This document shows, piece by piece, positions 17,187 through 51,466 of a stretch of DNA of 64,000 nt. The stretch is taken from NCBI GenBank assembly GCA_043798985.1, contig JAZDOE010000001.1, positions 309-64,308 on the forward strand, in the 5' to 3' direction. A model generated the notes under the pieces. It was not told the origin of the DNA and made no database searches. It saw only the letters and a program-made list of their open reading frames with translations. Every line of letters starts with the position of its first letter. Within the stretch, counting starts at the first letter, position 1. The DNA comes from Candidatus Falkowbacteria bacterium. GTDB lineage: Bacteria > Patescibacteriota > Patescibacteriia > UBA11705 > JACRDX01. Both the position numbers and the translations under genes were made by a program.

Positions 17187-17297
17187 TGTCATTTCGACCC
17201 CACAACGCCCGCTTCGCCGAGGCGAGTGGGGGAGAAATCCCTTGTGAAATGCATTTGCGAAGGGATTCCTCACCCTTTGCAAGGGTTCGGAATGACA
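17187..17297 (-). mobile_element. MITE/RPE-like hairpin repeat, full-length copy R1 (111 bp), minus orientation, intergenic between island A/H and rny
   Basis: Terminal inverted repeats tgtcatttcgacccc ... ggttcggaatgaca. The internal core gggggagaaatcccttgt(g/a)aa is shared with copies at 42447, 44175 and 49030. The element is itself flanked by an 8-bp inverted repeat (gagcgtcg / cgacgctc). Confidence 0.8.
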
Positions 17298-17329
17298 GGC
17301 GGCCTCACCGACGCTCTGTTTTGTAATTT

Positions 17330-18850
17330 TTATCTGGCGTATTCTATGACTCTGTTTTCGCGAATAACTGTTACCTTAATTTCACCCGGATATTTTAGTT
17401 CAGCTTCTATTTTTTTCGCGATTTCCTCCGCAAGTTTTTGCGCTTGCAAATCTGAAATCTGTTCTGGCTGGACAAACACGCGGACTTCGCGGCCAGCCTG
17501 AATAGCATATGCTTTTTCAACGCCCGGAAGATCTGTCGCGATTCCTTCCAAATCAGACAGCCGTTGCAAATAGTTTTCGTAAGTGTCTTTTCTTGCCCCT
17601 GGACGCGCGCCGGAAATCGCGTCAGCTGTTTTTACAATTATGCCTTCAACCGTTGTTGGCGTATCAAGATGATGCTCAAGAATCGGCGCGATAATTTCAG
17701 CTGGTAAATTGAATTTTTTGGCAATGTCGCGGCCGATTTCAGGGTGAGTGCCTTGAACTTCGTGATCAACGGCTTTGCCCAGGTCATGCAAAAACCCGGC
17801 TTTTTTGGCAACCGCGACTTTTACTCCAAGCTGTTCCGCAAGCAACGCGGAAAGATGCGCGACTTCAATGCTGTGCTGTAAAACATTTTGGCCATAGCTT
17901 GTGCGGTATTTTAAGCGGCCCATGATTTGAACCAACTTTGGGTCTAGTCCCGCAATTCCAACGTCATAGCAAGCTTCTTCGCCCGCTTTTTTGATGTCTA
18001 TGGCAACTTCTTGTTTTGCTTCTTCCAGCGCGCTTTCAATTTTTGCGGGATGAATGCGTCCGTCCAAAATTAATTTTTCCAGCATTCGTTTTGCCACTTG
18101 TCTGCGAATCGGTGAAAAGCTGGAAATGGTGATTGCTTGTGGCGTGTCGTCAATAATGATTTCAGTGCCAGTCATTTGTTCAAGCACTTTGATGTTGCGG
18201 CCTTCGCGACCAATGATTCTGCCTTTCATTTCGTCTGATGGCAAATTGACAGTGCTGGTCGTTGTTTCAACCGCTTGATTAATTGCGCAACGTTGTATCG
18301 CGCTGATAAGAATTCTTTTTGCTTCTTCGTCCAAAACTGTCGCGCCTTCTTCTTTTAATTTTTTCACGCGGCTCATAATGGATTCTTCCATTTGAGTTTC
18401 AACGTTTTTTACTAAAACCTGCGCTGCTTCCTGTTTCGTGAGACCTGCGATTTTTTCCAATTTTTCCAACTGGCTTTTTTGGATTTCCTGAATTTTTAAT
18501 TTTGTCTCTTCCAATTGCTGCGCTTTTTCTTGAAGTTTGCCTTTTTCGCCTTCCAAATCCATCAGTTTTTGGTCAAACATTGATTCTCTGCGCTCAAGTC
18601 GTTTTTGTAAATTTGACAATTCTTGTCTGCGGCCTTGCTCGTCGCGTTTCGCGTCTTCAATGATTTTGAACGCCTTGTCTTTTGCTTCCATTACCATTTC
18701 TTTTTGCTTGGCTTTTGTTTCGTTCAGCGAATTCGCGATTTTGGTTTCAAGTGATTTTGCTTTGTTGGCGATAATCAATTTTCGCGTGTAATAACCAACA
18801 AAAAAACCAGCCACGAGGATGACAGCCGCTTCAATAATTAGCTGTGACAT
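17330..18850 (-). CDS. rny: Ribonuclease Y
   Basis: N-terminal TM anchor, coiled coil, KH domain and HD domain (H...HD...D). 506 aa. Confidence 0.92.
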   Translation of the reverse strand: MSQLIIEAAVILVAGFFVGYYTRKLIIANKAKSLETKIANSLNETKAKQKEMVMEAKDKAFKIIEDAKRDEQGRRQELSNLQKRLERRESMFDQKLMDLEGEKGKLQEKAQQLEETKLKIQEIQKSQLEKLEKIAGLTKQEAAQVLVKNVETQMEESIMSRVKKLKEEGATVLDEEAKRILISAIQRCAINQAVETTTSTVNLPSDEMKGRIIGREGRNIKVLEQMTGTEIIIDDTPQAITISSFSPIRRQVAKRMLEKLILDGRIHPAKIESALEEAKQEVAIDIKKAGEEACYDVGIAGLDPKLVQIMGRLKYRTSYGQNVLQHSIEVAHLSALLAEQLGVKVAVAKKAGFLHDLGKAVDHEVQGTHPEIGRDIAKKFNLPAEIIAPILEHHLDTPTTVEGIIVKTADAISGARPGARKDTYENYLQRLSDLEGIATDLPGVEKAYAIQAGREVRVFVQPEQISDLQAQKLAEEIAKKIEAELKYPGEIKVTVIRENRVIEYAR

Positions 18851-19162
18851 ATTCTTTGGCCAGCTGGAAAAACGTTTGAATTGTTTGCGTCTACAACAAA
18901 AAACTTATTTACTGATTTTAGCGGTATTTTGTGAAAGCACGTCTTGGTTGTTGTATATATTCAAATTCATGCGATTACTGAAATTTGTTGAATTTCGCAA
19001 ATCTAACGTTTTCTTGCTTGCCGTTTATTTTTAAACTATTCATATTATACAGCATCTGAAAATAAAAAGCAAATGCAGGGTTAATGTTGACATTTTGAAA
19101 TAAATGAAATAAACTAAGTAGCAGAATGTTGGATGGCCACTTTTACAACGAGGAGGTGTGCA

Positions 19163-19606
19163 ATGAATGAGGGATGCAGGCCGGCGCATGAAGTGATCGT
19201 GCATCATCTGGAAGCTCAAGTTGATTTTGTCCATCGCAGTCTGGTGACGGAAACGCTGGACATCGCGTTCAGCCGATACGCGCAGGTGCACGCTCTGTTG
19301 TTCGTCTTGGAGGAGATGGTCATTCCAGAGCAAGCGGTTAGCCGCGTGATTTCTGCGTTGCATGGTATTTCGGAGCGTTTCAAAGAGATGCTGCCAATGG
19401 CCGGAGCGTTTCACGCGCGGATGGACAAGGCAGTTGAGATTCTGGTGGCGCGCAAGAAGCGCAGCGAGCAGCCGGGCGGATCGTCGAATGCTGACAAGCC
19501 ATTGTCTGCAGCAGAGAAGAAGATGGTGGGGGGTGTAGTTGATGAGGCGCTGCGCCTTGCCGATGAGTGCGAGGTCGTTGCTGAGAAGTTGAGAAAGAAA
19601 AGATGA
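19163..19606 (+). CDS. Hypothetical protein, high-GC island 'C'
   Basis: About 58% GC. TTGACA-18-TAAACT promoter (19087-19116), SD GAGGAGGTGTGCA-ATG, followed by a terminator. The ORF track calls 19133, but the ATG 30 nt downstream has the proper RBS spacing. Confidence 0.55.
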   Translation: MNEGCRPAHEVIVHHLEAQVDFVHRSLVTETLDIAFSRYAQVHALLFVLEEMVIPEQAVSRVISALHGISERFKEMLPMAGAFHARMDKAVEILVARKKRSEQPGGSSNADKPLSAAEKKMVGGVVDEALRLADECEVVAEKLRKKR

Positions 19607-19617
19607 TGAGTGATCTT

Positions 19618-19650
19618 TCGGGGCGCTCGCAAAGCGATCGCCCCCTTTTT
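19618..19650 (+). terminator. Rho-independent terminator after island C (cggggcgctcgc-aaa-gcgatcgccccc-TTTTTTT)
   Basis: 11-bp stem with one mismatch, followed by T7. Confidence 0.75.
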
Positions 19651-19674
19651 TTACGCCAGCATTTTTGCTAAGAT

Positions 19675-20853
19675 ATGGTTGTACGGGTTGTTAAATATGT
19701 CTTTATGAATATAGCGCAGGTTGTGTGCGTTCTGCCACCTATAGCCGGAGGAATTGGTCGCGTGGCAGATCGCTATGCTGATGAATTAACAAAACTCGGG
19801 CATGAAGTTCAGGTTTTTCTTCCTCAACAAAAAGGGGTGGATTTTTGTTTGGGCAAAAATTACAGAGTTGAACTGTTAAAACCGCTTGTTGGAAACGGGT
19901 TAGCAGCTGTTTTACCGCAGCTTTTTGGCAAATTGAAAAATTTTGATGCGATTATTTTGCATTATCCGTTTTTTGGGTCAGCTTTGTTGACGGCGCTGGT
20001 TGTCTCCTTCGACAGGCTCAGGATGACAACGCCGCGACGATTTATTGTTGTTTATCACATGGATGTTGTGTTAAAAGGTTGGAAAAAAATTTATGAAAAA
20101 GTTGGGCGATGGTTGTTTTTAAATTTTATTTTAAATTCCGCGGATAAAATTGTTTGTTCGTCATTTGATTACATTGAAAATTCAAATATAAAAAAATATT
20201 TTAGAAAACGCCGCGCCAAATTTTTTGAAATTCCTTTTGGCGCATCCGATCAATTTAAACCAGCGCCAAAAGATACAGAATTGTTGGCGCGGCACGGTTT
20301 TATTGAATCCGATAAAATCGTTTTATTTGTCGGTGGTTTAAATTCCGAACATTATTTTAAAGGCGTGAATTATTTTATTGACGCGATCAAGTTGATTGAT
20401 GATAAAAACATAAAAGCATTGATTGTTGGTTCTGGAAATTTGAAAAGCGAATATGAGAAGTTGGTTGACGAGAAGAATTTGGCGAATCGCGTAAAGTTTG
20501 CCGGATTTGTAAGTGATGAAGATTTGCCAAAATATTATAATTTGGCAGACGCAATAATTTTGCCGTCAATAAATTGTTCGGAAGCGTTTGGCATTGTGCT
20601 GGTTGAAGCAATGGCGTGCGGAAAACCGGTGCTGGCGTCAGATTTGGCAGGCGTGCGAAGTGTTGTTGAAAATAATAGAAACGGTTTTACGTTTGAACCA
20701 AAAACATCGGCTGATATCGCGTTAAAAATTGAAATGCTTTTTGGCGATGTTGCGCGCTATAAAATATTCAGCGAAGAATGTTTAAGGTTAGTTGAACAAA
20801 AATATCGCTGGAATATCGCCGCGAAAAAATTGAATGAAATAATTTTGTCATGA
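19675..20853 (+). CDS. Glycosyltransferase family 1 (GT4)
   Basis: C-terminal EAFGIVLVEAMACGKPV...E motif typical of GT4 retaining glycosyltransferases. Confidence 0.85.
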   Translation: MVVRVVKYVFMNIAQVVCVLPPIAGGIGRVADRYADELTKLGHEVQVFLPQQKGVDFCLGKNYRVELLKPLVGNGLAAVLPQLFGKLKNFDAIILHYPFFGSALLTALVVSFDRLRMTTPRRFIVVYHMDVVLKGWKKIYEKVGRWLFLNFILNSADKIVCSSFDYIENSNIKKYFRKRRAKFFEIPFGASDQFKPAPKDTELLARHGFIESDKIVLFVGGLNSEHYFKGVNYFIDAIKLIDDKNIKALIVGSGNLKSEYEKLVDEKNLANRVKFAGFVSDEDLPKYYNLADAIILPSINCSEAFGIVLVEAMACGKPVLASDLAGVRSVVENNRNGFTFEPKTSADIALKIEMLFGDVARYKIFSEECLRLVEQKYRWNIAAKKLNEIILS

Positions 20854-22049
20854 AAATTTGCATAATAACAAATTTATACCAGCCGCATAGTCGCGGCGGC
20901 GCGGAATTGATTGCCAAAACAATGGCAAACGGTTTTGTCAGCGCTGGTGATTCAGTTGTTGTTATTTCAACAAAACCAACGCGCGGTTTATCCGTGGATC
21001 AGGCGAGCGGGCGCATGCGAATTTATCGTTTCCTGCCGCTGAATATTTTTTATTATTTAAATGATTATAAACACAGCGCGCCAATCCGGTTGCTGTGGCA
21101 TTTTTTTGACATGTTCAATTGGCACAGCGCCAAAGTTGTCGCCGGAATTTTGAAAAATGAAAAACCTGATTTAGTCGTCACACACAATTTAAAAGGCATT
21201 GGTTTGTTAATACCGCGCGTAATCGCGCGGCTGAAATTAAAGCATGTTCATGTTTTGCACGATGTTCAGCTTGTTGTTCCATCTGGTCTGATTTTGAAAA
21301 ATCACGAGCAAGATTTTTCCATTGTCGGCTGGCCGACAAGAGTTTACGCTGGGATTTGTCGCTGGTTGTTTGGCAAAGTTAGTTTTGTCGTTTCGCCATC
21401 AAAATGGTTGCTTGATTTTTATGTTAGAAATGGATTTTTCAAAAACAGCCAGCAACAAACTATTCGCAATCCTGTGGTTGGCGTAGAGACGAGACATGTC
21501 TCGTCTCTGCAAAAGACCAATCAATTTTTGTTTGTTGGGCAAATTGAAAAGCACAAAGGCATTGATTGGTTAGTAAATTTTTGGAGGAAAAAGAATATTG
21601 CTGACGAATTGTTGATCGTTGGCCATGGATCGTTGAAGCATGGCTACGAAACTGCAAATCAGGACGAATGTTACAAATCTGCGAATATTAAGTTTTTTGG
21701 AAAAAAGACGAGGGAAGAGTTGGAAGAAATGTACCGGCCAGCTGACTTTTTAATCGCACCGTCATTATGTTATGAAAACTCTCCGACGGTGATTCAATCA
21801 GCGTTCCAAAACGGGGTGCCGGTGATTGTCGCTGATATTGGCGGCGCGGCAGAATTGGTTGAAAATAAAAAAACAGGATTTATTTTTCCTGCTGGCAACG
21901 AAGACGCGTTGATTAAAATCTTGGAAAATATCAAGTTGCTCGCGGACAAGGATTATCAAAAAATGTCAGAGCAATGTTTGGAAAAGTCGCGAGATTGGGA
22001 TGTTGAAAGATATATCGTAGCTTGTAGGAAGATAGCTGGTAGCTTGTAG
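20850..22049 (+). CDS. Glycosyltransferase family 1 (GT4), carrying an in-frame palindromic insertion (VETRHVSSLQ)
   Basis: N-terminal RGGAE glycine loop and C-terminal E.SPTVIQSAFQNGVPVIVADIGG motif. It overlaps the previous GT gene by 4 nt. Confidence 0.85.
   Translation: MKICIITNLYQPHSRGGAELIAKTMANGFVSAGDSVVVISTKPTRGLSVDQASGRMRIYRFLPLNIFYYLNDYKHSAPIRLLWHFFDMFNWHSAKVVAGILKNEKPDLVVTHNLKGIGLLIPRVIARLKLKHVHVLHDVQLVVPSGLILKNHEQDFSIVGWPTRVYAGICRWLFGKVSFVVSPSKWLLDFYVRNGFFKNSQQQTIRNPVVGVETRHVSSLQKTNQFLFVGQIEKHKGIDWLVNFWRKKNIADELLIVGHGSLKHGYETANQDECYKSANIKFFGKKTREELEEMYRPADFLIAPSLCYENSPTVIQSAFQNGVPVIVADIGGAAELVENKKTGFIFPAGNEDALIKILENIKLLADKDYQKMSEQCLEKSRDWDVERYIVACRKIAGSL
21485..21508. repeat. Perfect 24-bp palindrome agagacgagacatgtctcgtctct inside the GT CDS, in-frame. 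Member of the GTAGAGACG family.
   Basis: Its reverse complement is identical. It encodes ETRHVSS on both strands. Same sequence family as the copies at 7987, 40347 and 44742. Confidence 0.8.
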
Positions 22050-22085
22050 AATAAAAAATCGGCCCAGTAGTCTGGACCGGTTTTT

Positions 22086-23174: not shown

Positions 23175-23440
23175 CGCTTAATGCTCCTTTCTTTGTAAGA
23201 TGCACTAAGCGTAGCGCAGGCGATTTAAATTGTCAACGCTTGATTTTTTGTTCACATTTTGGGCTTTCATTTTTTATTAAATTCTGATAGAATGTAATAA
23301 GAAAGTAGAAACTGGAAACTGGGAATTAGGGTATATGAATATGCGTAATTGCAATTTTTTAAACCATAAGTTGTAACCTCAATTTCTAATTTCTCAATTT
23401 TGTTAATTTCAATTATAAATTAATTAAATAGTATAAAGTT

Positions 23441-25249: not shown

Positions 25250-25275
25250 GGCGAGATTGCCGCGCTACGCTCGCA

Positions 25276-25527
25276 ATGACAAATGATAAACGAAAATTAT
25301 ATTTGATCATTTCAGTTGCTATTACCGCATTGTTGATTTTTATTTTTTGGCTTGGTAGTGTCGCGAGTGATTTTCAACAAATAGATGCTGGACAAAAAAT
25401 AGGGGAAAACGGCGTTAAGCAGGAAATAGAAAGTTTTTTCAGCGGCGTGAAAAGTTTTATTATAAAAGATAAGCAAGATTTGTTAAATAAATATGAAAAA
25501 GATTCCGCAAAAAGCACTGGAATTTAA
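25276..25527 (+). CDS. Hypothetical small membrane protein
   Basis: 83 aa with one TM helix ([19 protein letters not shown]). It overlaps the gyrA start. Confidence 0.35.
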
Positions 25528-41422: not shown

Positions 41423-42436
41423 ATGAAAAAGTTTTATCGTTTAGTTTTGGGTCGCGCGTTGTGGATCGTCTGGCAATATAAGTGGCTGTGGCCATTGGGC
41501 TTGGCCGCGGTTTTTGTTTCAGCTGGAAGCATCTATGATTTTTTGCTACGAATTTTTGACAATTTACTTTCAGGCGTGTCGCCTGTTTTCAGCGTAATGG
41601 AATATTGGAGTACCAACTTGTTTAGTTGGATGAGCTTGTTAAGCGTGAGCGCGTGGTTGGGCGGGACTGGCCCATTGTGGATGGAAATTTTGATGGGATT
41701 TTTGGTCATTGTTTGTTTGCTGGTAGTTTTGGTTTTGGCAATTATCTGCCAAGTGGGTTTGATCAAAAGCGTCATTTCGTTGGACAAAGCAAAGCGAATC
41801 ACGCCAAATCAAGCGATTCAATCTGGCGTCAAATTGTTTTGGCCGGCATTAAAATTCAATATTTTGTCCAAAGTATTTTTGATCGCGTTGCTGTTTGGTT
41901 TTTCGTGGATGATCAGTTTGGTTGTGTTGGATAATTCATTGTTAAGTCTCGCGATGTATGCCGCGGCATTTGTCGTTTTGGTAATCGCGGTCATAGTCGT
42001 GCATTTCATTACAGTTTTTGGAATCGCCAGTTTGGTTTTAAAAAAGACCGACGTTGTTCACGCGGTCAAAAACGCGTTTCGGTTGTTTTCAAAAAATATC
42101 GTGCTGAACTTGGAAATGGGGTTGATACTTTTTTGTATAAATGTTGTCGTGGGAATGGCAGGCATTATCGCGATAATTGTGGTTGAGGCGCCATTGATTT
42201 TGGTTTATATGTTGGCAACGTTGTTGTCTTGGAATTTGTTGGCGCTAATATTTTCAGCTTTAATGTTAATCGTGTTTGTGTGCGTTTTGCTTGTTTTGGT
42301 CGCATGGTTGTCAACGTTCCAGCTTGCGTCGTGGGTGATTTTGTTTGACGAGTTAGAGGCAAATCGCGGTGAGGCAAAAGTTTCGCGGCTGACCGCGCAC
42401 TTAATCAAACGGCTGATTGGTAGGAAAAAGAAATAA
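41423..42436 (+). CDS. Hypothetical polytopic membrane protein
   Basis: 337 aa with about 8 predicted TM helices. Low GC like the host. Confidence 0.5.
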   Translation: MKKFYRLVLGRALWIVWQYKWLWPLGLAAVFVSAGSIYDFLLRIFDNLLSGVSPVFSVMEYWSTNLFSWMSLLSVSAWLGGTGPLWMEILMGFLVIVCLLVVLVLAIICQVGLIKSVISLDKAKRITPNQAIQSGVKLFWPALKFNILSKVFLIALLFGFSWMISLVVLDNSLLSLAMYAAAFVVLVIAVIVVHFITVFGIASLVLKKTDVVHAVKNAFRLFSKNIVLNLEMGLILFCINVVVGMAGIIAIIVVEAPLILVYMLATLLSWNLLALIFSALMLIVFVCVLLVLVAWLSTFQLASWVILFDELEANRGEAKVSRLTAHLIKRLIGRKKK

Positions 42437-42446: not shown

Positions 42447-42570
42447 TGTCATTCCGAATCCGCCCGGGGCGGATGAGGAATCCCTTCGCAAATGCCTTTA
42501 CAAGGGATTTCTCCCCCGCTCGCCTCGCTATCGCTTGTGCGAAGCGGGCTAAAGCAGGGTCGAAATGACA
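42447..42570 (+). mobile_element. MITE/RPE-like hairpin repeat, full-length copy R2 (124 bp), plus orientation, abutting the nfo stop codon
   Basis: tgtcattccgaatcc...gaggaatcccttcgcaaatgcctttacaagggatttctccccc...gggtcgaaatgaca. Same family as 17187..17297 (reverse orientation) and the short copies. Confidence 0.8.
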
Positions 42571-43398
42571 TCAGCGCAGACTTTTTAACAGCTTAAGCGT
42601 TTGCTTGTAAGACATTTTTTCTGCCGGAGTTTCTATGATTCCGGCGATTTTTTTTAGTTTTGGATGGTTGATCAAGGCTTTGAACGCAGCAAGCCCAATT
42701 GTTCCTTTGCCAATATCTTCATGCCGATCTTTTCGCGAACCAAGCTCTGCTTTCGCGTCGTTCAGATGTAAAATTTTCAGTTTGTTTAATCCGATCGTGT
42801 TGTTAAATTGTTTTAACGTTTTATTTAACGCGGCGCTCGTTCGTAAATCATAGCCAGAAACAAACGCGTGACAAGTGTCCATGCAAACGCCGACGTTTTT
42901 GTTTTTTAGATTTTTAATAATGTAGCCGATTTCATCAAAAGCATCTCCAATAATTTTGCCGGCGCCGGCGGAATTTTCCAAAAGCAATTGAGGCGCGCCA
43001 GAATAGCCATCCAAGATTTGATTGAGAGATTTTATCGCAAGTTGGCGCGCTTGCATTTCCGTTTGCTCGCCGGCGCTGCCAATGTGTGTGATTACGTACG
43101 CCACGCCAAGTTTGTTCGCGATGTCCAATTCGCTTTTTATTGAAGCAATGGACGCGTGGCGGATTTTATTATTTATTGAAGCGAGGTTTATGTAATACGC
43201 GCTGTGAATGCAAACAGTTGAAAACCGAAAGCGCGCGCAATTTTGTTTGAACGCGTCAATTGATTTTTTTGTGTAGGTTGGTTTGCCACCGCGCGGTGAA
43301 CGCGAAAACATTTGAAAAACTTCGCAACCAAGTTGCGCGGCGCCTAAGGGCGCGTTTTGTATTCCGCCGGCGATGGAAACGTGAGAACCAAATAGCAT
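42571..43398 (-). CDS. nfo: Endonuclease IV (AP endonuclease family 2)
   Basis: MLFGSHVSIAGG N-terminus and conserved His/Asp/Glu metal ligands of Nfo. 275 aa. Confidence 0.9.
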   Translation of the reverse strand: MLFGSHVSIAGGIQNAPLGAAQLGCEVFQMFSRSPRGGKPTYTKKSIDAFKQNCARFRFSTVCIHSAYYINLASINNKIRHASIASIKSELDIANKLGVAYVITHIGSAGEQTEMQARQLAIKSLNQILDGYSGAPQLLLENSAGAGKIIGDAFDEIGYIIKNLKNKNVGVCMDTCHAFVSGYDLRTSAALNKTLKQFNNTIGLNKLKILHLNDAKAELGSRKDRHEDIGKGTIGLAAFKALINHPKLKKIAGIIETPAEKMSYKQTLKLLKSLR

Positions 43399-43484: not shown

Positions 43485-44693
43485 TTAGGATTTCGGATTT
43501 CGTATTTCGAATTTTATTTTATGGATGTTTCTAATTACATGTTGCCCCGGCCTAGAATATTGCCAAGAGCCAACGATTTTAAGATTTGTTTGCGCGAGAA
43601 TCTTTTCAAGGTTAAGATTGAATGTTTGTTGTTTAATGTTAAAAGACGGGACAATGATAACGAGCGTGCCTGTTTTTTTCAAAACAACTGCCAGTTGTTC
43701 AAGGATTTCCGCGTAAAAAATTTCAAGTTCGCTGACCTGTTGTTTTATGACGTTCAACGGTTCATTGCCCCAAAGCGGTTTGCCTAAAAATGGTTCTGTC
43801 ACAATCACGTCAATGGAATTTTTCGCGACTTCATTGCTCAATATTCTGGCGTCCAGTTGGGCTATTTCAATATTGAATTGTTTGTTGGTTTGCTGTTCTA
43901 TCCATGCGATATTTTTGCGAGAATCTTCAACTGCTTTTGCTGAAAAATCAGAGCCGAGAATTTTTTTAAAACCAAGTAGCGCCGCTTGTTGTAAAATTGT
44001 TCCGGAGCCGCAGAATGGATCCAAGATTGTTGCGGTTTGTTTTGCTTCGCTTAAATTTAACATTATTGTCGCGACTTTTGGCGGCAACATACCTGATTCA
44101 GCGTCTTTGTTCGGTCTGTCGTAGTCAAATTTGGAGAACTTTTCAAATGGCTGGACTGCCAATGTGCGGCCAATTACAAGGGATTTCTCCCCCGCCAAGG
44201 CGGGGTCGAAATGACAGGTGCGTGCATCAGCCGAGAACAAATTAAATTCAGCGCCGGCGTCGGTTAAAAGTTTGTTTTTTTCGGTTGCAACGCTGGATAA
44301 ATATTTTTCGCCTTGTTGCGGATAAACAAATCTGCAGGGTTGTTCAATTTCTTTTTTAAGTTGTTTGCTCAAATTTATTGGTTTGTTTTTGCCGGTATAA
44401 TCATTGATGCCAAATATGATTTTTTTGTCCGTTTGCGGCAACAAAGACTTTATTGTTGCGCTAAGGTTGGTTGAGTCTGTTGTGCCAACAATTTCGCCGA
44501 TCTTAATTGTACCGCCTAAATGTTGAATCATTTGCTCCGCGTCTATTTTGGTTTTAAGGTCAAAAATAGCAAATTCTTTTGTTGATGCTAAACATTTCGC
44601 GATAATTTTGTCGCGTTTAAAAACTGCTTCTAATTCAGCAATGGATAATTCTGGTTGTCTGCCTAAAATAAAGAAATATTGCATATATCGCAT
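43485..44693 (-). CDS. Putative RNA (guanine-N2) methyltransferase, Trm11/TrmN-like (UPF0020 family), carrying an in-frame MITE insertion
   Basis: SAM motif I LDPFCGSGTIL and a motif-IV-like VTEPFLGKP. A perfect TATAAT lies 7 nt before the ATG, suggesting leaderless or short-leader expression. Contains the 17-aa MITE-encoded peptide TCHFDPALAGEKSLVIG. Confidence 0.6.
   Translation of the reverse strand: MRYMQYFFILGRQPELSIAELEAVFKRDKIIAKCLASTKEFAIFDLKTKIDAEQMIQHLGGTIKIGEIVGTTDSTNLSATIKSLLPQTDKKIIFGINDYTGKNKPINLSKQLKKEIEQPCRFVYPQQGEKYLSSVATEKNKLLTDAGAEFNLFSADARTCHFDPALAGEKSLVIGRTLAVQPFEKFSKFDYDRPNKDAESGMLPPKVATIMLNLSEAKQTATILDPFCGSGTILQQAALLGFKKILGSDFSAKAVEDSRKNIAWIEQQTNKQFNIEIAQLDARILSNEVAKNSIDVIVTEPFLGKPLWGNEPLNVIKQQVSELEIFYAEILEQLAVVLKKTGTLVIIVPSFNIKQQTFNLNLEKILAQTNLKIVGSWQYSRPGQHVIRNIHKIKFEIRNPKS
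44175..44216 (+). mobile_element. Short (42-bp) copy R3 of the MITE/RPE-like family, inserted in-frame within the methyltransferase CDS (which is read on the opposite strand)
   Basis: tacaagggatttctcccccgccaaggcggggtcgaaatgaca. The reverse complement translates in the gene's frame to TCHFDPALAGEKSLV. Confidence 0.8.
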
Positions 44694-44741: not shown

Positions 44742-44769
44742 GTAGAGACGAGATATATCTCGTCTCTAC
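44742..44769. repeat. Perfect 28-bp palindrome gtagagacgagatatatctcgtctctac (GTAGAGACG family)
   Basis: Reverse complement is identical. Intergenic, about 50 bp upstream of the methyltransferase start and about 140 bp upstream of the island E promoter. Confidence 0.85.
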
Positions 44770-44860: not shown

Positions 44861-44868
44861 GGGGGGGG
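44861..44868 (+). repeat. G8 homopolymeric tract about 45 bp upstream of the -35 of the island E promoter
   Basis: ggggggggca at 44861; the only G8 in intergenic sequence in this window. Confidence 0.6.
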
Positions 44869-44990: not shown

Positions 44991-45455
44991 ATGGAGCAGA
45001 ACTACAACGACGAGATGGGACTGGACAAGGCGCTCGGATGCAAGCCGTCGAAGAACCACCGTGTGCTGGATCGGATCGCGAAGATCGTCGGCGCGCTGAT
45101 GTTGGCCGGAATCGTGTTGTTCCTCGGACTGACGGCGTTGCAGCTGGTTCGCGTGTACAACCTCAACGAGGACTCGATGGAGCTGACGCAGAGAGTGGAC
45201 GAGTTCACCAAGTGCGGCGAGTACGAGTCGTACAACAAGTGCATGGATCGGGCGATCGCGCGGAATCCGCAGAAGGCGAAGCGGATGTTCGCCAGCGTGC
45301 AGGATTTACTTGACCGGAGAGCCGAAGGCTTCTTCTGGCCGGCGAACGCGGACTACCAGGGAGCAAACGGCTGGCCAGTGACGAGCCTCCGCGTCAATCG
45401 GGAGCAGTTGAGTGCGTCGCTGGACAAGTGGCGCACTCAACCCGGCAACCTGTAG
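44991..45455 (+). CDS. Hypothetical single-pass membrane protein, high-GC island 'E'
   Basis: About 60% GC with strongly GC3-biased codons. Promoter is TTGACT-17-TATAAT (44912-44940). SD CGGAGGTGTGTC-ATG. One TM helix (IVGALMLAGIVLFLGLTAL). Confidence 0.6.
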   Translation: MEQNYNDEMGLDKALGCKPSKNHRVLDRIAKIVGALMLAGIVLFLGLTALQLVRVYNLNEDSMELTQRVDEFTKCGEYESYNKCMDRAIARNPQKAKRMFASVQDLLDRRAEGFFWPANADYQGANGWPVTSLRVNREQLSASLDKWRTQPGNL

Positions 45456-45537
45456 GCGAGCAGTCTCGCAACGAGCGTGGCGACATGGGCGTTCAGAATC
45501 TTGAGCGCCCTGTTTTTTTTGCTACGAATGGCGGCTA

Positions 45538-45569
45538 CGTTGACGATAAAGCTAATTTGCGCTATCATT
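45538..45569 (+). repeat. 32-bp direct repeat copy 1 (cgttgacgataaagctaatttgcgctatcatt), containing a TTGACG-17-TATCAT promoter
   Basis: Identical except for one base to 46523..46554. The two copies bracket gene F. Confidence 0.85.
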
Positions 45570-45645
45570 ATGAACAAGAATAGCGACCGCACTCGAGCCT
45601 CGGTTTTCAATTGCTTTATATATTTTTTGGAGGTATACTTAATTT

Positions 45646-46458
45646 GTGTGCGTCGTTATTTTAGAAATTAATTTTATTTTTATGGTTTCGTTTGAAGATC
45701 CAACATTGCAGTCAACAGGTGAAGCTAAATCCGTTCAAGACGAACAAAAGGGAAAAAAAGATGCGATTATTTCTCCGGAACGAGCGCTTGAAGAGTCGCG
45801 CGCATTTTATCAACGGCATAATTTTGCCGCGCTTTTGGACAAGATTCCCGAGAGCATTATTCTTTCTGATGAGGCCAGGAAAAAGATTGAGGAGGCGCAG
45901 AAGCAGGGGTTTGATCGTATGATGATTATGCCGGATATTGCGACGCAGAATGAGCAGACCAAAGAGATTGTAACTGGTTTGGTTACCGACAAACCGAGCT
46001 ATTATAATGCGCTAGATCAGCATAGTCGTGATTCTGAGAATTGGCATCAGCATTTACCCAAAAATCGTCCAGAGGGGAAACCTTATATGTTTCTTTATAA
46101 ATCCACAGGCGTAGAGCCAGAAACATTAGGCAAAACGCATCCTGAAGCGGAAGCATATTTGAAAGAGCATGGTTGGACAGGGCTTGCTTTGCAGGAGGCT
46201 TATTTGATTATGTATAAGGATAGAGAGGATAACCCAACTGCTTTTGCTAACAGGCTCGTGGAGTATGGCGAGAAATACGGTAGTTATTTGCTCGATGAGA
46301 GCGGGTATAGCCAGAAGTATATGACTGCGTGGTCTAAATTGGCGCCAGATCCCGATACTGGCGAGCGCGCACATGAATATCAATGGTCCAATTCTTTTGG
46401 TGGAAACAGAAGAGATGACCACGTCGGGACAAAAGCGTCAATAGTTATTGAATTATAG
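45646..46458 (+). CDS. Hypothetical soluble protein, island 'F'. Start is uncertain: GTG at 45646 (with an upstream GGAGG) or ATG at 45682.
   Basis: 270/258-aa ORF between the two promoter-containing direct repeats. It ends with a terminator hairpin (atcacgtga...tcgcgtgatTTTTTT, about 46471-46506). Confidence 0.5.
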   Translation: MCVVILEINFIFMVSFEDPTLQSTGEAKSVQDEQKGKKDAIISPERALEESRAFYQRHNFAALLDKIPESIILSDEARKKIEEAQKQGFDRMMIMPDIATQNEQTKEIVTGLVTDKPSYYNALDQHSRDSENWHQHLPKNRPEGKPYMFLYKSTGVEPETLGKTHPEAEAYLKEHGWTGLALQEAYLIMYKDREDNPTAFANRLVEYGEKYGSYLLDESGYSQKYMTAWSKLAPDPDTGERAHEYQWSNSFGGNRRDDHVGTKASIVIEL

Positions 46459-46522
46459 TACAATCAGAGAATCACGTGACTTATTTATGAGTTCGCGTGA
46501 TTTTTTATATAGCGATGAGTCG

Positions 46523-46554
46523 CGTTGACGATGAAGCTAATTTGCGCTATCATT
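46523..46554 (+). repeat. 32-bp direct repeat copy 2, the promoter immediately upstream of infB
   Basis: cgttgacgatgaagctaatttgcgctatcatt, 6 nt before the infB ATG region. Confidence 0.85.
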
Positions 46555-46559
46555 GACAT

Positions 46560-48563
46560 ATGAATGTTTCAGAATTGGCTAGAAAATTAAGAACAACCAC
46601 AGATGAGCTTTTGGCAAAATTACCAGAGCTTGGTTTTGATATTGGTAAACGCGCGATTAAAGTTGATGACCGCGTTGCGAGTCGCATTGTTCAGGCGTGG
46701 AACAGCTATAAAATTCAGGAAGCGCAAAAGCAGGATTATCTGCGCGCCAAAGAACATCAGGCCGCTACCCGCGAGGGCGCGCAATTGAGCGGCGAAAAAG
46801 TTCAGATTCCGGCTGTTTTGAGTGTGCGCGAGCTTGCGGAAATTTTGAAAACGCCGGTTTCGCAGGTAATTGGGACATTAATGAAAAACGGCGTGATCGC
46901 GTCATTGAATCAGAAGATTGATTATGAGACAGCCGCGATTGTCGCCGAAGAAATGGGCTTTCCTGCTGAACAAACAACAGCTAATGCCGATGATCAGGTT
47001 TTTGTTAGTCAGATTGAAAAAATGGATAAAGTTTTAGCGGCCGATACTGGCAAGTTATCTCGGCCGCCGATAGTCGTTGTGATGGGACATGTTGATCATG
47101 GTAAAACAAAATTATTGGACGCGATTAGAAAAACGCACGTGATGGAAGGCGAAGCTGGCGGAATTACGCAGCACATTGGAGCATACCAAGTTGTTTGGAA
47201 AGATAAAAATAAGAATGAGCAGAAGATCAGCTTTATTGACACCCCGGGTCACGAGGCTTTTACTGCAATGCGGTCGCGCGGCGCTGAAGTTGCTGACATT
47301 GCGATTTTGGTTATCGCGGCCGACGATGGTGTTATGCCGCAGACTATTGAAGCAATTAAAATTGCGGAGGCCGCGAAATTGCCGATTATTGTCGCGATAA
47401 ACAAAATTGACAAACCAGGCGCTGATCCTGAAAAAATCAAGCGTGAATTGTCGCAGCAAAATTTAATCAGCGAAGACTGGGGCGGCAAAACAATAATGAT
47501 TCCAATCTCAGCAAAGCAAAATCAAAATATTGACGCTGTGCTGGACGCGATTTTGTTGGTTGCCGGGATGGAAGTAGCAACAATACAAGCCAATCCTGAT
47601 GGTAAAATAATGGCTTGTGTAATTGAGTCGCACATTGATAAGAATTCTGGTCCTGTTGCGACATTGCTGGTAAAAAATGGAACATTGCGAGTCGCTGATA
47701 TTTTGCATATAGATGGCGTTTTCGTTGGCAAAGTAAAAACACTGAAAGATTGGTTGGGCAAGGAGCTGAAAGAAGTCGAACCATCATGTCCAGCGCAGAT
47801 TTTGGGATTTAAAATCGCGCCAAAAGTTGGCGACATTGTTGAAGTTGCCGCTGAAATGGGAGACGTCACACGCGTGAAATTTAGAAAATCGGAAAAGCAA
47901 GAATCAGCCGGAGTTGATGAATCCAGTCAGACCGAAGACAAAGAAGGGGTGACAAAAGTGAATTTAATTTTGCGAGCCGACGTGCTTGGTTCGCTTGAAG
48001 CTATTGTTGAATCCCTGAAAAAATTAGAGCGTGAGGATTTGAAAATAAAAATTGTTAAGCAAGGGTTGGGAAATTTAACGGAAAATGACGTGGCATTGGC
48101 AGAGGCGAGCAAAGCGATTGTTTTTGGTTTTAATGTGCGATTCGGCAGAGGCGTTGAAGAGGCGTTAAAAGCCAAGAATATTACGGTTAAGCTTCACCGC
48201 ATCATTTACGATTTAATTGATGATGTTAAAGAAAAGATAAATGAGTTGGTAAAACCTGAAACTGTTCGTTTGGATTTGGGCAAGGTTGAAGTTTTGGTAA
48301 TATTTAAAAAGACAGCCGGGCAAATGGTAATTGGCGGCAAGGTTGTTGACGGCGAAATTGTGCAAGGCGCTAAAGCGGCTGTGTTGCGGCAGGGTAATTT
48401 TATCACAACCGGCGACATTGAAAAATTACAAGCAGCCAAACAAGACGTGACAAATTGCGTGCGCGGACAAGAGTGCGGAGTGCAATTCAGAGGTCAGCCA
48501 TTGATTGAAAAAGGTGATATTTTAGAGGTTTTTCGCGAAGAAGCCAAGAAACATGGGATATAA
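46560..48563 (+). CDS. infB: Translation initiation factor IF-2
   Basis: G domain (VMGHVDHGKTKLLD, DTPGHEAF, NKID) plus the C-terminal beta-barrels. 667 aa. Confidence 0.95.
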   Translation: MNVSELARKLRTTTDELLAKLPELGFDIGKRAIKVDDRVASRIVQAWNSYKIQEAQKQDYLRAKEHQAATREGAQLSGEKVQIPAVLSVRELAEILKTPVSQVIGTLMKNGVIASLNQKIDYETAAIVAEEMGFPAEQTTANADDQVFVSQIEKMDKVLAADTGKLSRPPIVVVMGHVDHGKTKLLDAIRKTHVMEGEAGGITQHIGAYQVVWKDKNKNEQKISFIDTPGHEAFTAMRSRGAEVADIAILVIAADDGVMPQTIEAIKIAEAAKLPIIVAINKIDKPGADPEKIKRELSQQNLISEDWGGKTIMIPISAKQNQNIDAVLDAILLVAGMEVATIQANPDGKIMACVIESHIDKNSGPVATLLVKNGTLRVADILHIDGVFVGKVKTLKDWLGKELKEVEPSCPAQILGFKIAPKVGDIVEVAAEMGDVTRVKFRKSEKQESAGVDESSQTEDKEGVTKVNLILRADVLGSLEAIVESLKKLEREDLKIKIVKQGLGNLTENDVALAEASKAIVFGFNVRFGRGVEEALKAKNITVKLHRIIYDLIDDVKEKINELVKPETVRLDLGKVEVLVIFKKTAGQMVIGGKVVDGEIVQGAKAAVLRQGNFITTGDIEKLQAAKQDVTNCVRGQECGVQFRGQPLIEKGDILEVFREEAKKHGI

Positions 48564-48630
48564 GGTTGCGTTTTTCGATTGGAATTGCTATAATGTCAGT
48601 AGAATTTAAATTTAAATAACTTCAAACACT

Positions 48631-48792
48631 ATGGCAGTACAAGCTTATTGCGTAAAGTGCAAGGCCAAGAGAGACATGAACGATCCAAAGGAAGTGTCTT
48701 TCAATGCAAAGGGTGGAAAGAGCAGAAGGGCAATGCAGGGCACATGCCCAAAGTGCGGAACAAAGATGTTTAGAATCATGCCTAATAAATAA
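48631..48792 (+). CDS. Small zinc-ribbon protein (53 aa, C-x2-C...C-x2-C; DUF5679-like), below the ORF-track size cutoff
   Basis: MAVQAYCVKCKAKRDMNDPKEVSFNAKGGKSRRAMQGTCPKCGTKMFRIMPNK. Two CxxC pairs. Located just downstream of infB. Confidence 0.5.
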   Translation: MAVQAYCVKCKAKRDMNDPKEVSFNAKGGKSRRAMQGTCPKCGTKMFRIMPNK

Positions 48793-48946
48793 TTACTTAG
48801 CATGGCGAAATGCTCTCGGCTGATCCGGGGGCATTTTGTTTTATTGAAAAAATGGGAAAATTACGATACAATACCAAGTGAAATTTCAAATATCAAAGTT
48901 CAAATTTCAAATCAATTACAAATGTCAAATGTCAAAGATGTAAATT

Positions 48947-51466
48947 ATGCAAAAATATAACCATAAAAAGATAGAAAAGAAATGGCAGAAAGAGTGGGAA
49001 AAGAGTGGGATAAACGAGGCGAAGACATTTACAAGGGATTTCTCCCCCGTCAGGGACGGGGTCGAAATGACAACTGCGCATGCTGGAAAAGAACGACCCA
49101 AGTTTTATTGTTTAGTTGAGTTTCCATATCCGTCCGGAGATGGTTTGCATGTCGGACATGTGCGCTCATACACGGCCATGGACATTATTTCCCGCAAAAA
49201 GCGAATGCAGGGATTTAATGTTTTATATCCAATCGGTTGGGATGCTTTTGGTTTGCCGACTGAAAATTTTGCTATAAAAACAGGAAAACAACCAGCGCTC
49301 GTCACAAAGGAAAATGTAAAAGTTTTTAAAAAACAAATTCAATCACTTGGAATCAGTTTTGACTGGTCGCGCGAAATAAATACCACTGATCCTGAATATT
49401 ACAAATGGACGCAGTGGATTTTTTTGAAACTTTTTGAAAAAGGTTTGGCGTATAAAAAGAAAATGCCCATAAACTGGTGCCCAAAATGCAAAAGTGGATT
49501 GGCGAACGAGGAAGTTGTTGACGGAAAATGCGAGCGGTGCGGCGCGGAGACGACAACAAAGGAGCTTGAACAATGGATGTTGCGAATCACAAAATACGCG
49601 GACAGGTTGATTGAAGATTTGGAAACAGTTGATTATTTGGAAAAAATAAAAACCCAGCAAATAAATTGGATCGGGCGTAGTTATGGCGTCAATTTTAAAC
49701 ACAAGATAAAAGATTTGAACATTGAGTTTGAAGTTTTTGATTCAATTCCGCAAACGCATCAGGCGCAGACTTTTTTTATTATCGCGCCCGAACACCTATT
49801 GGTGCGTGAGTTGGTTAAGGGTACAAAAGAAGAATCCGCGGTCATGAAATTTGTTGATGAAATTGTAAAAAAGAAGCTCGCCAAGAAGTTTGATATTGAT
49901 AAGGACATGGAAGGTGTTTTCACTGGACGATGTGTTGAAAATTATTTGGGAACAGGCAGAGATTTGCCGATTTGGGTCGCAAGTTTTGCGTTGGTTGATT
50001 ATGGGACGGGCATTGTCGGTTGCAGTGCGCACGATGAGCGGGATTTTAAATTCGCGAAAAAATATAATATCCCATTAAAGCCGGTTTTGTTTCCAAAAGA
50101 TAAAGAATTGGCAGAAAAAGTTCGTGCCATGGAAATATTTTATCGCGAGTCGGACGGGATTTTGGAAGAGCCGGTGGAATTTAAAGGGCGACAATGGGAC
50201 GAGGCGAGGGAAGATATTGTTGATTGGATTGAAAAAAATAATTTGGGCAAACGGACAGTGCAATATAAATTGCGTGACTGGGTTTTTTCGCGGCAGCATT
50301 ATTGGGGAGAACCAATACCGTTAATTTTTTGTGAAAAGTGTGGCTGGGTAGCGGTTCCGGAAGATGAGTTGCCAGTTGAATTGCCAAAAGTGAAAAAATA
50401 CGAGCCAACTGAAACAGGCGAATCGCCATTGGCAGCAATTGAAAAATGGGTGAAAACAAAATGCCCAAAGTGCGGGAGTGTTGCGCGGCGTGAAACTGAC
50501 ACAATGCCAAATTGGGCAGGTAGCTCGTGGTATTACCTCGCATACTTGATTGGCAAAATGACCAAATCCCAATTCCCAATGACCAATTATGGAAAGGAAT
50601 TTAAATACTGGCTTCCGGTTGACTTGTATAATGGCGGCATGGAACACACGACTTTGCATTTATTGTATTCAAGATTTTGGCACAAATTTTTATATGACAT
50701 TGGCGCTGTGCCAACCAGCGAGCCATACCAGCGACGCATTTCGCACGGTATGATTCTCGCGCCAGACGGTCAAAAAATGTCAAAGTCGCGCGGTAATGTT
50801 ATAAATCCTGACAAAATTGTTGAAGAATTTGGCGCGGATGTTTTGAGAATTTACGAAATGTTTATGGGTCCGTACGATCAGGCTGTTGCGTGGGATTTGA
50901 ATGGCGTAAAGGGCGCGTCAAGATTTGTTGAGCGCGTTTATCATTTTAAAAATTTTACTGAAAAATGTGAGCCTGAAGTTGAAAATTTGTTGCACAAAAC
51001 AATTAAAAAAGTCAGCGAAGATATTGATGAGCGCAGATTTAACACGGCTGTTTCGGCAATGATGATTTTCGTGAATAAAATTTACGAAAAAGGTTGTTGC
51101 AAAGAATGTTTTAAAAAGTTTTTACTTTTGTTAAGTCCGTTTGCCCCGCATTTGGCAGAAGAGTTGTTTGTCGCACTTCCCCTCGACGAAGCTCGGGGCA
51201 GGCTCGCTCATGGTGACAAGTCATCAATATTTTTGAATGAATGGCCAACGTTTGACGTAACAAAAATCGTGGATAAAATGATTGAAGTTGTTATTCAAAT
51301 CAATGGAAAAGTAAGAGGACGATTGCAGGTTGCGGCAGATATTCAGGAAAAAGATATTTTAGAATTGGCGCTGACCGACGAGAAAATTAAAAGTCAAATT
51401 GAGGGGAAAAAAATAATTAAAACAATGTACGTTCCGAAGAAAATAGTGAGCATTGTTGTTAAGTAA
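48947..51466 (+). CDS. leuS: Leucine--tRNA ligase, carrying an in-frame MITE-encoded insertion near the N-terminus
   Basis: HVGH (HIGH-class) motif in PYPSGDGLHVGHVRSY and KMSKS (QKMSKSRGN). 839 aa. About 15 extra residues (FTRDFSPVRDGVEMT) occur between the conserved N-terminal helix and the KFYCL strand. Confidence 0.95.
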   Translation: MQKYNHKKIEKKWQKEWEKSGINEAKTFTRDFSPVRDGVEMTTAHAGKERPKFYCLVEFPYPSGDGLHVGHVRSYTAMDIISRKKRMQGFNVLYPIGWDAFGLPTENFAIKTGKQPALVTKENVKVFKKQIQSLGISFDWSREINTTDPEYYKWTQWIFLKLFEKGLAYKKKMPINWCPKCKSGLANEEVVDGKCERCGAETTTKELEQWMLRITKYADRLIEDLETVDYLEKIKTQQINWIGRSYGVNFKHKIKDLNIEFEVFDSIPQTHQAQTFFIIAPEHLLVRELVKGTKEESAVMKFVDEIVKKKLAKKFDIDKDMEGVFTGRCVENYLGTGRDLPIWVASFALVDYGTGIVGCSAHDERDFKFAKKYNIPLKPVLFPKDKELAEKVRAMEIFYRESDGILEEPVEFKGRQWDEAREDIVDWIEKNNLGKRTVQYKLRDWVFSRQHYWGEPIPLIFCEKCGWVAVPEDELPVELPKVKKYEPTETGESPLAAIEKWVKTKCPKCGSVARRETDTMPNWAGSSWYYLAYLIGKMTKSQFPMTNYGKEFKYWLPVDLYNGGMEHTTLHLLYSRFWHKFLYDIGAVPTSEPYQRRISHGMILAPDGQKMSKSRGNVINPDKIVEEFGADVLRIYEMFMGPYDQAVAWDLNGVKGASRFVERVYHFKNFTEKCEPEVENLLHKTIKKVSEDIDERRFNTAVSAMMIFVNKIYEKGCCKECFKKFLLLLSPFAPHLAEELFVALPLDEARGRLAHGDKSSIFLNEWPTFDVTKIVDKMIEVVIQINGKVRGRLQVAADIQEKDILELALTDEKIKSQIEGKKIIKTMYVPKKIVSIVVK
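49030..49072 (+). mobile_element. Short (43-bp) copy R4 of the MITE/RPE-like family, inserted in-frame in leuS
   Basis: tacaagggatttctcccccgtcagggacggggtcgaaatgaca, which translates in the leuS frame as TRDFSPVRDGVEMT. Confidence 0.8.

Follow-up and report, generated by a model that had tools for sequence, protein, structure and literature searches.

TGTC-tagged palindromic repeats between and within genes of a Candidatus Falkowbacteria genome

Results

The DNA analyzed here is a stretch of 64,000 nucleotides (the window) from the metagenome-assembled genome (MAG) of a Candidatus Falkowbacteria bacterium, a member of the candidate phyla radiation (CPR, Patescibacteria; GenBank assembly GCA_043798985.1, contig JAZDOE010000001.1, positions 309 to 64,308). 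It carries a short, GC-rich palindromic repeat at four loci, two of which lie between genes and two in frame within genes. In a preliminary description made from the sequence, copies sharing one core had been listed at 17187-17297, 42447-42570, 44175-44216, and 49030-49072, and all four are indeed found there. With the 20-mer core TACAAGGGATTTCTCCCCCG, three exact occurrences and one with two mismatches (17227-17246, minus strand) were obtained, compared with none expected from shuffled sequences; with the 14-mer 3′ arm GGGTCGAAATGACA, four exact occurrences and one copy with two mismatches were obtained, compared with 0.47 expected. The G+C content of the elements is 55-57%, that of the window 42%.

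A covariance model, designated R1, was built from 17 units, of which two are the singlets of the window and 15 come from the genomes of various phyla. Over the 64 kb, it returned exactly six units (44179-44216, 49034-49072, 42503-42570, and 17261-17297 on the plus strand; 17187-17242 and 42447-42485 on the minus strand) with E-values between 1e-14 and 8e-7, the next match being far weaker (E = 0.24). The four loci are, in other words, six copies of one hairpin unit. Its form is 5′-(TAC)AAGGG-ATTYC-TC-(GC-rich variable inner stem and loop)-TC-GRAAT-GACA-3′ or, on the other strand, TGTC-ATTYC-GA-...-GA-GRAAT-CCC. It constitutes an asymmetric hairpin in which an unpaired TGTC tag is followed by a 5-bp outer stem (ATTYC/GRAAT, starting A-T, A-T), a 2 × 2 internal loop, and a GC-rich, variable inner stem of 5-7 bp, which is closed by a loop of 3-7 nt or by a nested insert of 27-39 nt; the tail is CCC(TTGTA). 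All six units, as well as units of the ATTGC and ATCCT subfamilies (see below), end in ...ATGACA, which reads TGTCAT... on the other strand. Four to five of the six reading frames of a single unit are open.

The two intergenic elements are both inverted dimers composed of one ATTCC-type and one ATTTC-type unit, arranged head-to-head with the TGTC tags outermost and a spacer of 17-18 nt. The dimer at 17187-17297 lies between the convergent open reading frames (ORFs) 16677-17114 (plus strand) and 17330-18850 (minus strand, encoding RNase Y). Its left half (17187-17242, minus strand) is of the ATTTC type and has a nested apical insert of 27 nt (46.8 bits with R1, E = 1.7e-10), its right half (17261-17297, plus strand) is of the ATTCC type (33.3 bits, E = 7.9e-7) and was also recovered by a regular-expression and fold scan. 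The dimer at 42447-42570 lies, again, between convergent genes (41423-42436, plus strand, and the gene for an apurinic/apyrimidinic [AP] endonuclease, 42571-43398, minus strand) and is contiguous with the stop codon of the AP endonuclease gene. Here, the left half (42447-42485, minus strand; 40.5 bits, E = 8.6e-9) is the ATTCC-type unit, and the right half (42503-42570, plus strand; 48 bits, E = 7.9e-11) the ATTTC-type unit, with a nested apical insert of 39 nt. Folded as single strands, the dimers form an outer stem and three hairpins, the 17187 copy as a four-way junction, with energies of −53 kcal/mol (17187; z = −5.0) and −62 kcal/mol (42447; z = −5.4). The outer stem is what had been taken for terminal inverted repeats (TIRs) in the preliminary description, and the reported ends, tgtcattYcga...tcgRaatgaca, are present in both dimers. 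The view of the 111-124-bp copies as full-length and of the 42-43-bp copies as minimal versions of the element has to be replaced: the long copies are inverted heterodimers and the short ones single units. Likewise, a core enclosing a short hairpin describes the singlets but not the long copies, in both of which 27-39 nt lie between the conserved arms.

Both singlets are ATTTC-type units with identical arms; the top of the inner stem differs by a compensated pair (CC/GG vs TC/GA), and the loop differs as well. Their hairpins fold at −17.2 and −19.3 kcal/mol, the latter being that of the copy at 44175-44216. Conservation of pairing was also evident across a wider set. In a MAFFT alignment of 17 hand-picked units, 93% of the cells were paired, compared with 40-56% when the partners were slid. 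The corresponding values for 57 distinct units from 29 sources were 94% and 36-52%, with changes on both sides in 10 of 12 pairs, in an alignment that was fitted to the model and is biased towards structure, the MAFFT alignment being the independent one. The first pair of the outer stem is A-U in 55, and the second U-A in 56, of these 57 units.

One of the singlets (49030-49072, plus strand; 60.1 bits with R1) lies in leuS, the gene for leucyl-tRNA synthetase (LeuRS; 839 aa; 48947-51466, plus strand), which was identified by Pfam domain matches and the product of which is 100% identical to an NCBI-annotated leucine--tRNA ligase of a Candidatus Falkowbacteria MAG. The unit is read on the same strand and spans codons 28/29-42, yielding the peptide TRDFSPVRDGVEMT. 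Where the consensus of 60 aligned CPR orthologues is ...AK-DFS-KKPKFY..., the LeuRS of the window has 19 additional residues. About 14 of them are the unit; the other ∼5 (TAHAG) are lineage-specific and shared with the relative L002. An earlier estimate of about 15 added residues, thus, has the in-frame read-through right, whereas the gap to the orthologues is 19 residues, of which ∼14 come from the element. The insert is absent from about 50 CPR orthologues, and the alignment with the Thermus enzyme (1h3n) shows a gap of 16+2 residues at this site, which is the loop leading from the N-terminal helix to the first Rossmann strand.

LeuRS has further sites of this kind. At 51173-51223 (plus strand), the alignment with 12 orthologues reveals another insert of ∼11 extra residues (LPLDEARGRLAH) near the C-terminal domain; its DNA, ...CCCCTCGACGAAGCTCGGGGCAGGCTCGCTCATGGTGACA, resembles units of loci L008 and L002, and it is tentatively taken as a second, decayed tagged unit of leuS. 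The genes of two relatives (L038, 3986-6478, and L002, 3810-6320, both on the minus strand) were compared. In L002, the N-terminal site of the window is filled as well, by an ATTGC unit whose tag is read in another frame. A second site, which lies close to the beginning of the editing-domain region, holds ATTGC units in opposite orientations (VIARPSLSRAKQS in L038 vs IAAPRCGGTRND in L002), and a third, within the editing-domain region, holds an ATCCT unit in L038 only (REILRQAQDDN). The N-terminal loop was considered as a CPR-wide hot spot and rejected as such; because long loops occurred in just 5 of 120 homologues, and the others were without tag peptides, recurrence in this loop is confined to close relatives of the window.

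The other singlet (44175-44216, 42 nt, plus strand; 62.1 bits) lies in a gene for a UPF0020/Trm11-like RNA methyltransferase (402 aa; 43485-44693, minus strand; PF01170, E = 3.8e-17), homologues of which carry the name tRNA G10 N-methylase Trm11. As had been proposed, it is read in frame on the strand opposite to that read in leuS, occupying exactly codons 160-173 (peptide CHFDPALAGEKSLV), and the segment is absent outside the immediate clade: among 50 aligned homologues, all except the three closest have a tight β-turn at this site. An AlphaFold model based on 52 sequences (mean predicted local distance difference test [pLDDT], 92.9) places the insert at the tip of a β-hairpin, between strands 147-154 and 172-180, as the sole low-confidence interior loop (pLDDT < 50 at residues 158-161; averages of 72 and 56 for the 10-residue blocks); the unit's tail, SLV, is aligned with a β-strand native to the enzyme. 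Four genomes have a unit in this loop, and no two have the same one (ATTTC in the window; ATTGC, tagged CGTC, in L001; a decayed, ATCCT-like unit in L037; and a reversed ATTCT unit in L002); in the more distant L038, the loop is empty.

The four copies listed previously are real, but the window contains further related units. An ATCCT-subfamily unit (TGTCTCCTTCGACAGGCTCAGGATGACA) lies in frame in a family 4 glycosyltransferase (GT4) gene (unit, 20001-20030, plus strand; gene, 19675-20853; VSFDRLRMT), and a second one, assigned by sequence resemblance, in frame in a DUF4012 gene (unit, 56834-56863, minus strand; gene, 54541-57054, minus strand; VSFDKLRMT). The two share TGTCWYCCTGAGC..TCGAAGGA and are 97% complementary to each other. 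An intergenic ATTGC-subfamily unit (GAGATTGCCGCGCTACGCTCGCAATGACA; 25252-25285, plus strand) lies upstream of gyrA, between it and a gene for a metallo-β-lactamase-fold protein; it forms a weak hairpin and matches R1 weakly (E = 0.24). Altogether, four genes of the 64 kb bear five tagged units between them, and a fifth gene has an in-frame GTAG repeat (see below). All intragenic copies examined (these six and those of L001, L002, L037, L038, and L043) are free of stop codons and keep the frame. The notion that in-gene copies are unusual for such a genome has, therefore, to be abandoned, as other genes of the window and orthologues in sister genomes carry units, too.

A family of GTAG-tagged palindromes (GTAGAGACG...CGTCTCTAC) coexists in the window with the TGTC-tagged one, at 7983-8010, 21483-21510, and 44742-44769; the palindrome GTAGAGACGAGAYATRTCTCGTCTCTRC has copies in L043 at 10344-10370 and 11866-11893. 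The copy at 21483 is in frame in the linker of a second GT4 gene (20850-22049; VETRHVSSL), the length of which is ordinary, so that no residues are added. Its L043 orthologue differs at the apex of the stem, where C-G is replaced by T-A in a compensated change, and thereby matches the intergenic copy of the window at 44742 exactly. In the first GT4 gene of L043, the TGTC unit is immediately followed by another GTAG copy, also in frame. A GT4 homologue from the CPR (P0374) contains ...ALGGASLGMT... in the inter-domain linker equivalent to the one bearing the GTAG repeat; its ...GMT end suggests, judging from the peptide, a TGTC-type unit in the GT4 linker of a distant lineage. The GT4 inserts were placed by alignments of orthologues, the PDB alignments of both GT4 proteins covering the C-terminal domain only.

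Syntenic contigs of four related genomes were reached via homologues of the methyltransferase and of the GT4 proteins. The closest of these genomes (GCA_016212745.1; ∼80% identical in protein and, for the GT4 genes, ∼83% in nucleotide sequence) has neither of the dimers nor the unit upstream of gyrA at the orthologous places; the TGTC unit and the GTAG palindrome of the GT4 genes are shared with the window. In L043 (a ∼80%-identical relative), no dimer like that at 17187 lies downstream of the RNase Y gene, and the spacer orthologous to that at 25252 has no unit; in L001, the orthologues of the genes flanking the 42447 dimer abut, with no element between them. The GT4 unit at 20001 is present, with an intact stem (ATCCT/AGGAT), in the 81%-identical orthologue and absent from the 72%-identical one and every more distant one. 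As presence or absence and subfamily differ among the relatives, units have been gained, lost, or exchanged since these lineages split.

In the preliminary description, a lack of recurrence elsewhere in the genome had been named as one of two findings that would refute it; copies were counted over the 64-kb window of this MAG and over other genomes, and further copies were found in both. The exact pattern GGGATTTCTCCCCC-N(9-39)-GGGTCGAAATGACA, with 28 anchored bases, matched 17 loci in a collection of species-representative genomes, i.e., an isolate of Luteimonas marina (two loci), delta- and gammaproteobacterial MAGs, Omnitrophota, Ignavibacteriaceae, Chlorobiota, Bacteroidetes, and several CPR lineages. 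Most of these are tag-outside dimers, as in the window. In two gammaproteobacterial MAGs (L008, 322-430, and L013, 7520-7630), an orthologous dimer with an adjacent third hairpin is identical over ∼105 nt of element sequence, compared with 66-93% identity of the proteins on either side, and is, thus, far better conserved than its surroundings. A relaxed pattern matched four viral contigs, one of which (L042, IMGVR_UViG_3300029288_000501; 62% G+C, classed as viral) has eight units within ∼5 kb (5826-10895), clustered rather than dispersed. The head sequence ACAAGGGAT is common to the window, L001, and L002 and does not occur in the other phyla. The lineage-specific 18-mer ACAAGGGATTTCTCCCCC yielded 16 loci in a metagenome collection, ∼13 of which are chance matches and three true dimers. 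A BLASTN search of a plasmid collection with a dimer gave no match, and searching literature text for tag-plus-stem strings returned unrelated primer matches only.

Rfam was searched with the whole window at the gathering threshold and with the two dimers at E ≤ 10, and nothing beyond noise, such as miRNA-like hairpins, was obtained. Hammerhead and other ribozymes, attC, dif/Xer, and CRISPR repeats were considered and discarded, as their conserved boxes do not fit and the lone Rfam match to a CRISPR repeat (E = 3.1) is far below threshold. The motif NNTGCGCA, which follows three copies, was likewise not taken as a target because it is partly native coding sequence, namely that of the AP endonuclease C-terminus.

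Some repeats of other kinds were observed in the window. Inverted repeats of 24 nt (96% complementary) at 58165-59382 bracket two minus-strand genes, one for a 23S-rRNA-intervening-sequence protein (a bAvd-like four-helix bundle; 58173-58556) and one for a TrmB-like regulator (58619-59356); related copies of CCAGTTACYAGTT lie at 58571-58630 and 23303-23327. Within ORF 60919-61323, about five tandem 21-nt repeats (GATATAACAGAAATGCGGGGT; 61042-61146) encode a 7-residue repeat, DITEMRG, of a coiled-coil-like protein. A 32-nt direct repeat (45538-45569 and 46523-46554; 97% identical; CGTTGACGATRAAGCTAATTTGCGCTATCATT) resembles a TTGACG-17-TATCAT promoter box and is positioned upstream of ORF 45646-46458 and of ORF 46560-48563, which is probably, by synteny, the gene for initiation factor IF-2.

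Discussion

In anatomy and placement, the units recall the CGTC-tagged superfamily of repetitive extragenic palindromic (REP) sequences, which includes the Rickettsia palindromic elements (RPEs) RPE-4 and RPE-6 and dRS3 of Neisseria (Di Nocera, De Gregorio & Rocco, 2013, BMC Genomics 14:522; PMC3733652). According to the text of that survey, members have an unpaired terminal CGTC tag, with TGTC and CCTC allowed as variants and TGTC frequent, a stem with almost invariable A-T residues at the first and second positions, and a short, unpaired tail with the consensus CCA at the untagged end; they mainly form tag-outside (head-to-head) dimers with conserved spacers of 20-100 bp, head-to-tail arrangements being negligible, and are located 3′ of genes, in spacers of convergent or unidirectional ORFs, with intragenic in-frame copies that include those in tRNA synthetases and RNA-modification enzymes. 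The units of the window have the tag and the A-T/A-T start of the stem. Their tail, CCC(TT), or AGGG when read from the other strand, is CC-rich without matching CCA exactly, and both dimers are tag-outside, albeit with spacers of 17-18 nt. Also shared are the location between convergent ORFs, in-frame copies within genes, and occurrence in several distant phyla; no transposase was seen among the 36 ORFs of the window that were scanned or around the 17 loci in other genomes (see below). Of the in-gene peptides of Rickettsia listed in the survey (CHSRESGNP, WILRSSRGMT, and VIPAKAGI), the first two share their ends, CH... and ...MT, with TCHFDP... and ...GVEMT of the window.

Differences concern architecture and size. 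For families CGTC-1 to CGTC-4, a continuous stem of 8-9 bp and a loop of 4-5 nt are described (Di Nocera et al, 2013), whereas the stem of the window units has two tiers (5 bp, a 2 × 2 loop, and 5-7 bp); the published families are ∼25-30 nt long and encode 8-10 residues, the window units, about half as long again, measure 38-68 nt, with 14 residues encoded by a singlet. Because of the two-tier stem, and of loops of 3-7 nt or nested inserts of 27-39 nt, the units are placed outside the four published families, a separation drawn from text descriptions of these, so that the ATTTC type may belong within CGTC-2 or CGTC-3. They are classed as a new structural variant allied to the CGTC/TGTC superfamily, in a host group that is unlisted for it: CPR/Patescibacteria are not among the five phyla given in the survey text, which also states that no association with a transposase or REP-associated tyrosine transposase (RAYT) is known (Di Nocera et al, 2013).

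The likeness to RPEs that had been suggested for the elements turns out to be closer than supposed, as RPE-4 and RPE-6 belong to the superfamily whose tags the units carry. The comparison extends to the functional class. RPE-1 and its kin reportedly occur in frame in genes whose proteins are functional, on either strand, in surface-exposed positions, and in the small genome of a host-dependent bacterium. In the window, too, a palindromic repeat is tolerated in frame on either strand, on the same one in leuS and on the opposite one in the methyltransferase, as had been claimed; judged from alignments, in-frame palindromes appear at positions absent from orthologues in leuS, the methyltransferase, and GT4. 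RPE-1-type elements differ in being ∼100-150 bp long and unrelated in sequence, and the units described here occur in a CPR host and, near-unchanged, in free-living bacteria of other phyla. GTAG-tagged REPs and REPINs are mobilized by RAYTs, which are IS200/IS605-like Y1 transposases. The TGTC units are similar to these in being short tagged hairpins near gene 3′ ends, most commonly inverted dimers but also singlets; they differ in the tag, TGTC instead of GTAG, and in that no Y1 transposase was found among the scanned ORFs.

The interpretation preferred here, with a probability of about 0.8, assigns the elements to the CGTC/TGTC-tagged superfamily, as REP-type palindromes occurring in Candidatus Falkowbacteria, with a selfish-type spread filtered by selection; the repeat family is probably selfish. 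As the same DNA is read on opposite strands and is present in spacers, the peptides encoded within genes are by-products of the repeat, and convergence of protein sequence is excluded because the DNA specifying the peptide is a repeat with copies in intergenic DNA as well. The units would spread as non-autonomous DNA by means of an enzyme supplied in trans rather than encoded next to them; that such an enzyme acts on the folded single strand is a tentative suggestion made by analogy with REP/RAYT and IS200/IS605 chemistry. Copies would survive only where they are harmless, that is, as dimers in spacers or as singlets in permissive surface loops of proteins. The singlets, with the frame kept and no stop codon, would be translated as extra loop residues. 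Dimers between convergent genes could fold into large cruciforms or RNA hairpins and might, incidentally, stabilize or terminate transcripts; this role is possible but unsupported, because no U-tract follows the dimers. Selection on the hairpin, compensatory change, or conversion from other copies may keep resident copies palindromic, and gain, loss, and exchange would proceed over times such as those separating genomes that share 50-80% protein identity.

Several observations weigh against this interpretation. No mobilizing enzyme was found: in a Pfam scan, 36 ORFs of the window were housekeeping genes or had no match, and in an all-against-all comparison of ORFs, no protein recurred beside the 17 loci other than by housekeeping coincidences (Lon, CysRS) and in one pair of orthologous loci; nor was a RAYT/Y1 transposase or an insertion sequence (IS) detected among the scanned ORFs of the window or in the fetched loci. 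At the four copies, there is neither a target-site duplication nor a fixed target sequence. Further copies with the lineage head TACAAGGG in the metagenome collection number three only. The net gain in the methyltransferase is +12 aa for a unit of 14 aa, and that in GT4 is ∼+5-6 aa for a unit of 10 aa; going by the alignments, gains below unit length are unexplained by simple insertion. The structural bias of the 57-unit alignment, and the fact that translation of the inserts is read from their intact frames, also belong here.

Alternative explanations fare worse. According to one, the long copies are classical miniature inverted-repeat transposable elements (MITEs), i.e., deletion derivatives of an IS moved by a DDE transposase, with the 42-nt copies as remnants. 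Bacterial MITEs, such as the QMITEs of Coxiella and the Correia elements of Neisseria, are small and non-autonomous, have inverted ends, and can add residues to proteins; as derivatives of ISs, they have TIRs and target-site duplications. The long copies of the window do end in inverted repeats of 11-12 bp (tgtcattYcga/tcgRaatgaca), and the dimer architecture recurs in many genomes. However, these apparent TIRs are made up of the tags and outer stems belonging to two whole units that fold separately, that also occur alone, and that are of different subfamilies (ATTCC and ATTTC) within a dimer; direct target duplications are lacking at either long copy, no IS or transposase was seen in the window ORFs scanned or beside the 17 other loci, and the anatomy fits that of published tag-outside REP dimers. 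This origin is, thus, improbable, and the label MITE, under which the elements had been described, does not apply in its strict sense, given that there is no duplication at either dimer, that the halves occur alone, and that no parent IS was found. Somewhat better placed, but still unlikely, is the explanation that the hairpins are maintained for the benefit of the host, as bidirectional terminators, mRNA stabilizers, or binding sites of a host protein, and were spread by selection. It would account for the position of both dimers exactly between convergent genes, for the strong folds with pairing kept by compensatory change, and for the identity, over ∼105 nt of element sequence, of the dimer in L008 and L013 between more divergent genes. 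Yet, the hairpins are not followed by a U-tract, copies occur in both orientations within coding sequence, where a terminator would be harmful, the closest relative lacks the dimers at the orthologous gene ends, and no Rfam family matches. Exaptation of some copies is compatible with a selfish-type spread of the repeats.

Two further explanations concern the in-gene copies. Were the peptides conserved, functional segments of LeuRS and the methyltransferase, with the resemblance of the DNA a mere by-product, the intact frames and the alignment of the SLV tail with the native β-strand of the methyltransferase would be readily understood. The same DNA, however, gives unrelated peptides on opposite strands and is also found in non-coding spacers, orthologues lack the segments, sister genomes have different units in the same methyltransferase loop, and the segment in the methyltransferase is predicted to be a low-confidence loop. 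This explanation is refuted by the comparisons of strands and orthologues and is almost certainly wrong. Alternatively, the inserts might not be translated at all, the ribosome skipping the hairpin or the mRNA losing it, as is reported for the GC-rich 'byp' inserts of a yeast mitochondrion. In favor of this, the inserts of the window are stable, GC-rich hairpins in AT-rich coding sequence; but all examined intragenic copies are stop-free and frame-keeping, for which bypassing would provide no reason, and no matched take-off and landing codons are evident, which makes this very improbable.

A selfish-type spread of the REP-type units may also be less passive than outlined above. The same loops hold different subfamilies or orientations in each sister lineage, length changes amount to less than a unit, and orthologous copies are kept perfectly palindromic by compensatory changes. 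An active, targeted process, as opposed to random insertion with subsequent selection, in which resident hairpins attract new insertions or are replaced by copies of another unit, with a machinery conserved from Proteobacteria to CPR, could produce this pattern and is given a small, though not negligible, chance.

The kind of element and its in-frame tolerance are already known from the work on Rickettsia and from the 2013 survey. What is new is that the host belongs to the CPR, that the units have two tiers, that essential genes are decorated at such a density, and that different subfamilies repeatedly occupy the same loops; within the literature library searched, no report linked REP- or RPE-type repeats with the CPR. 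If the interpretation is correct, the CGTC/TGTC-tagged repeats, the group to which the classic in-gene elements of Rickettsia belong, extend to the CPR, and streamlined genomes tolerate many units in essential genes, which would affect the annotation of CPR genomes, alignments of protein families, and structure prediction; the units would, furthermore, be natural markers of permissive loops. Near-identical units in distant phyla, together with turnover in the same loops, sharpen the question raised by the survey of 2013, i.e., what moves or maintains such repeats. For this, the finding is mainly a lead. CPR genomes have about a thousand genes; because these are so few, they could reveal the mobilizing enzyme of the CGTC/TGTC repeats, and a search for such a factor by phylogenetic profiling becomes practical in genomes this small.

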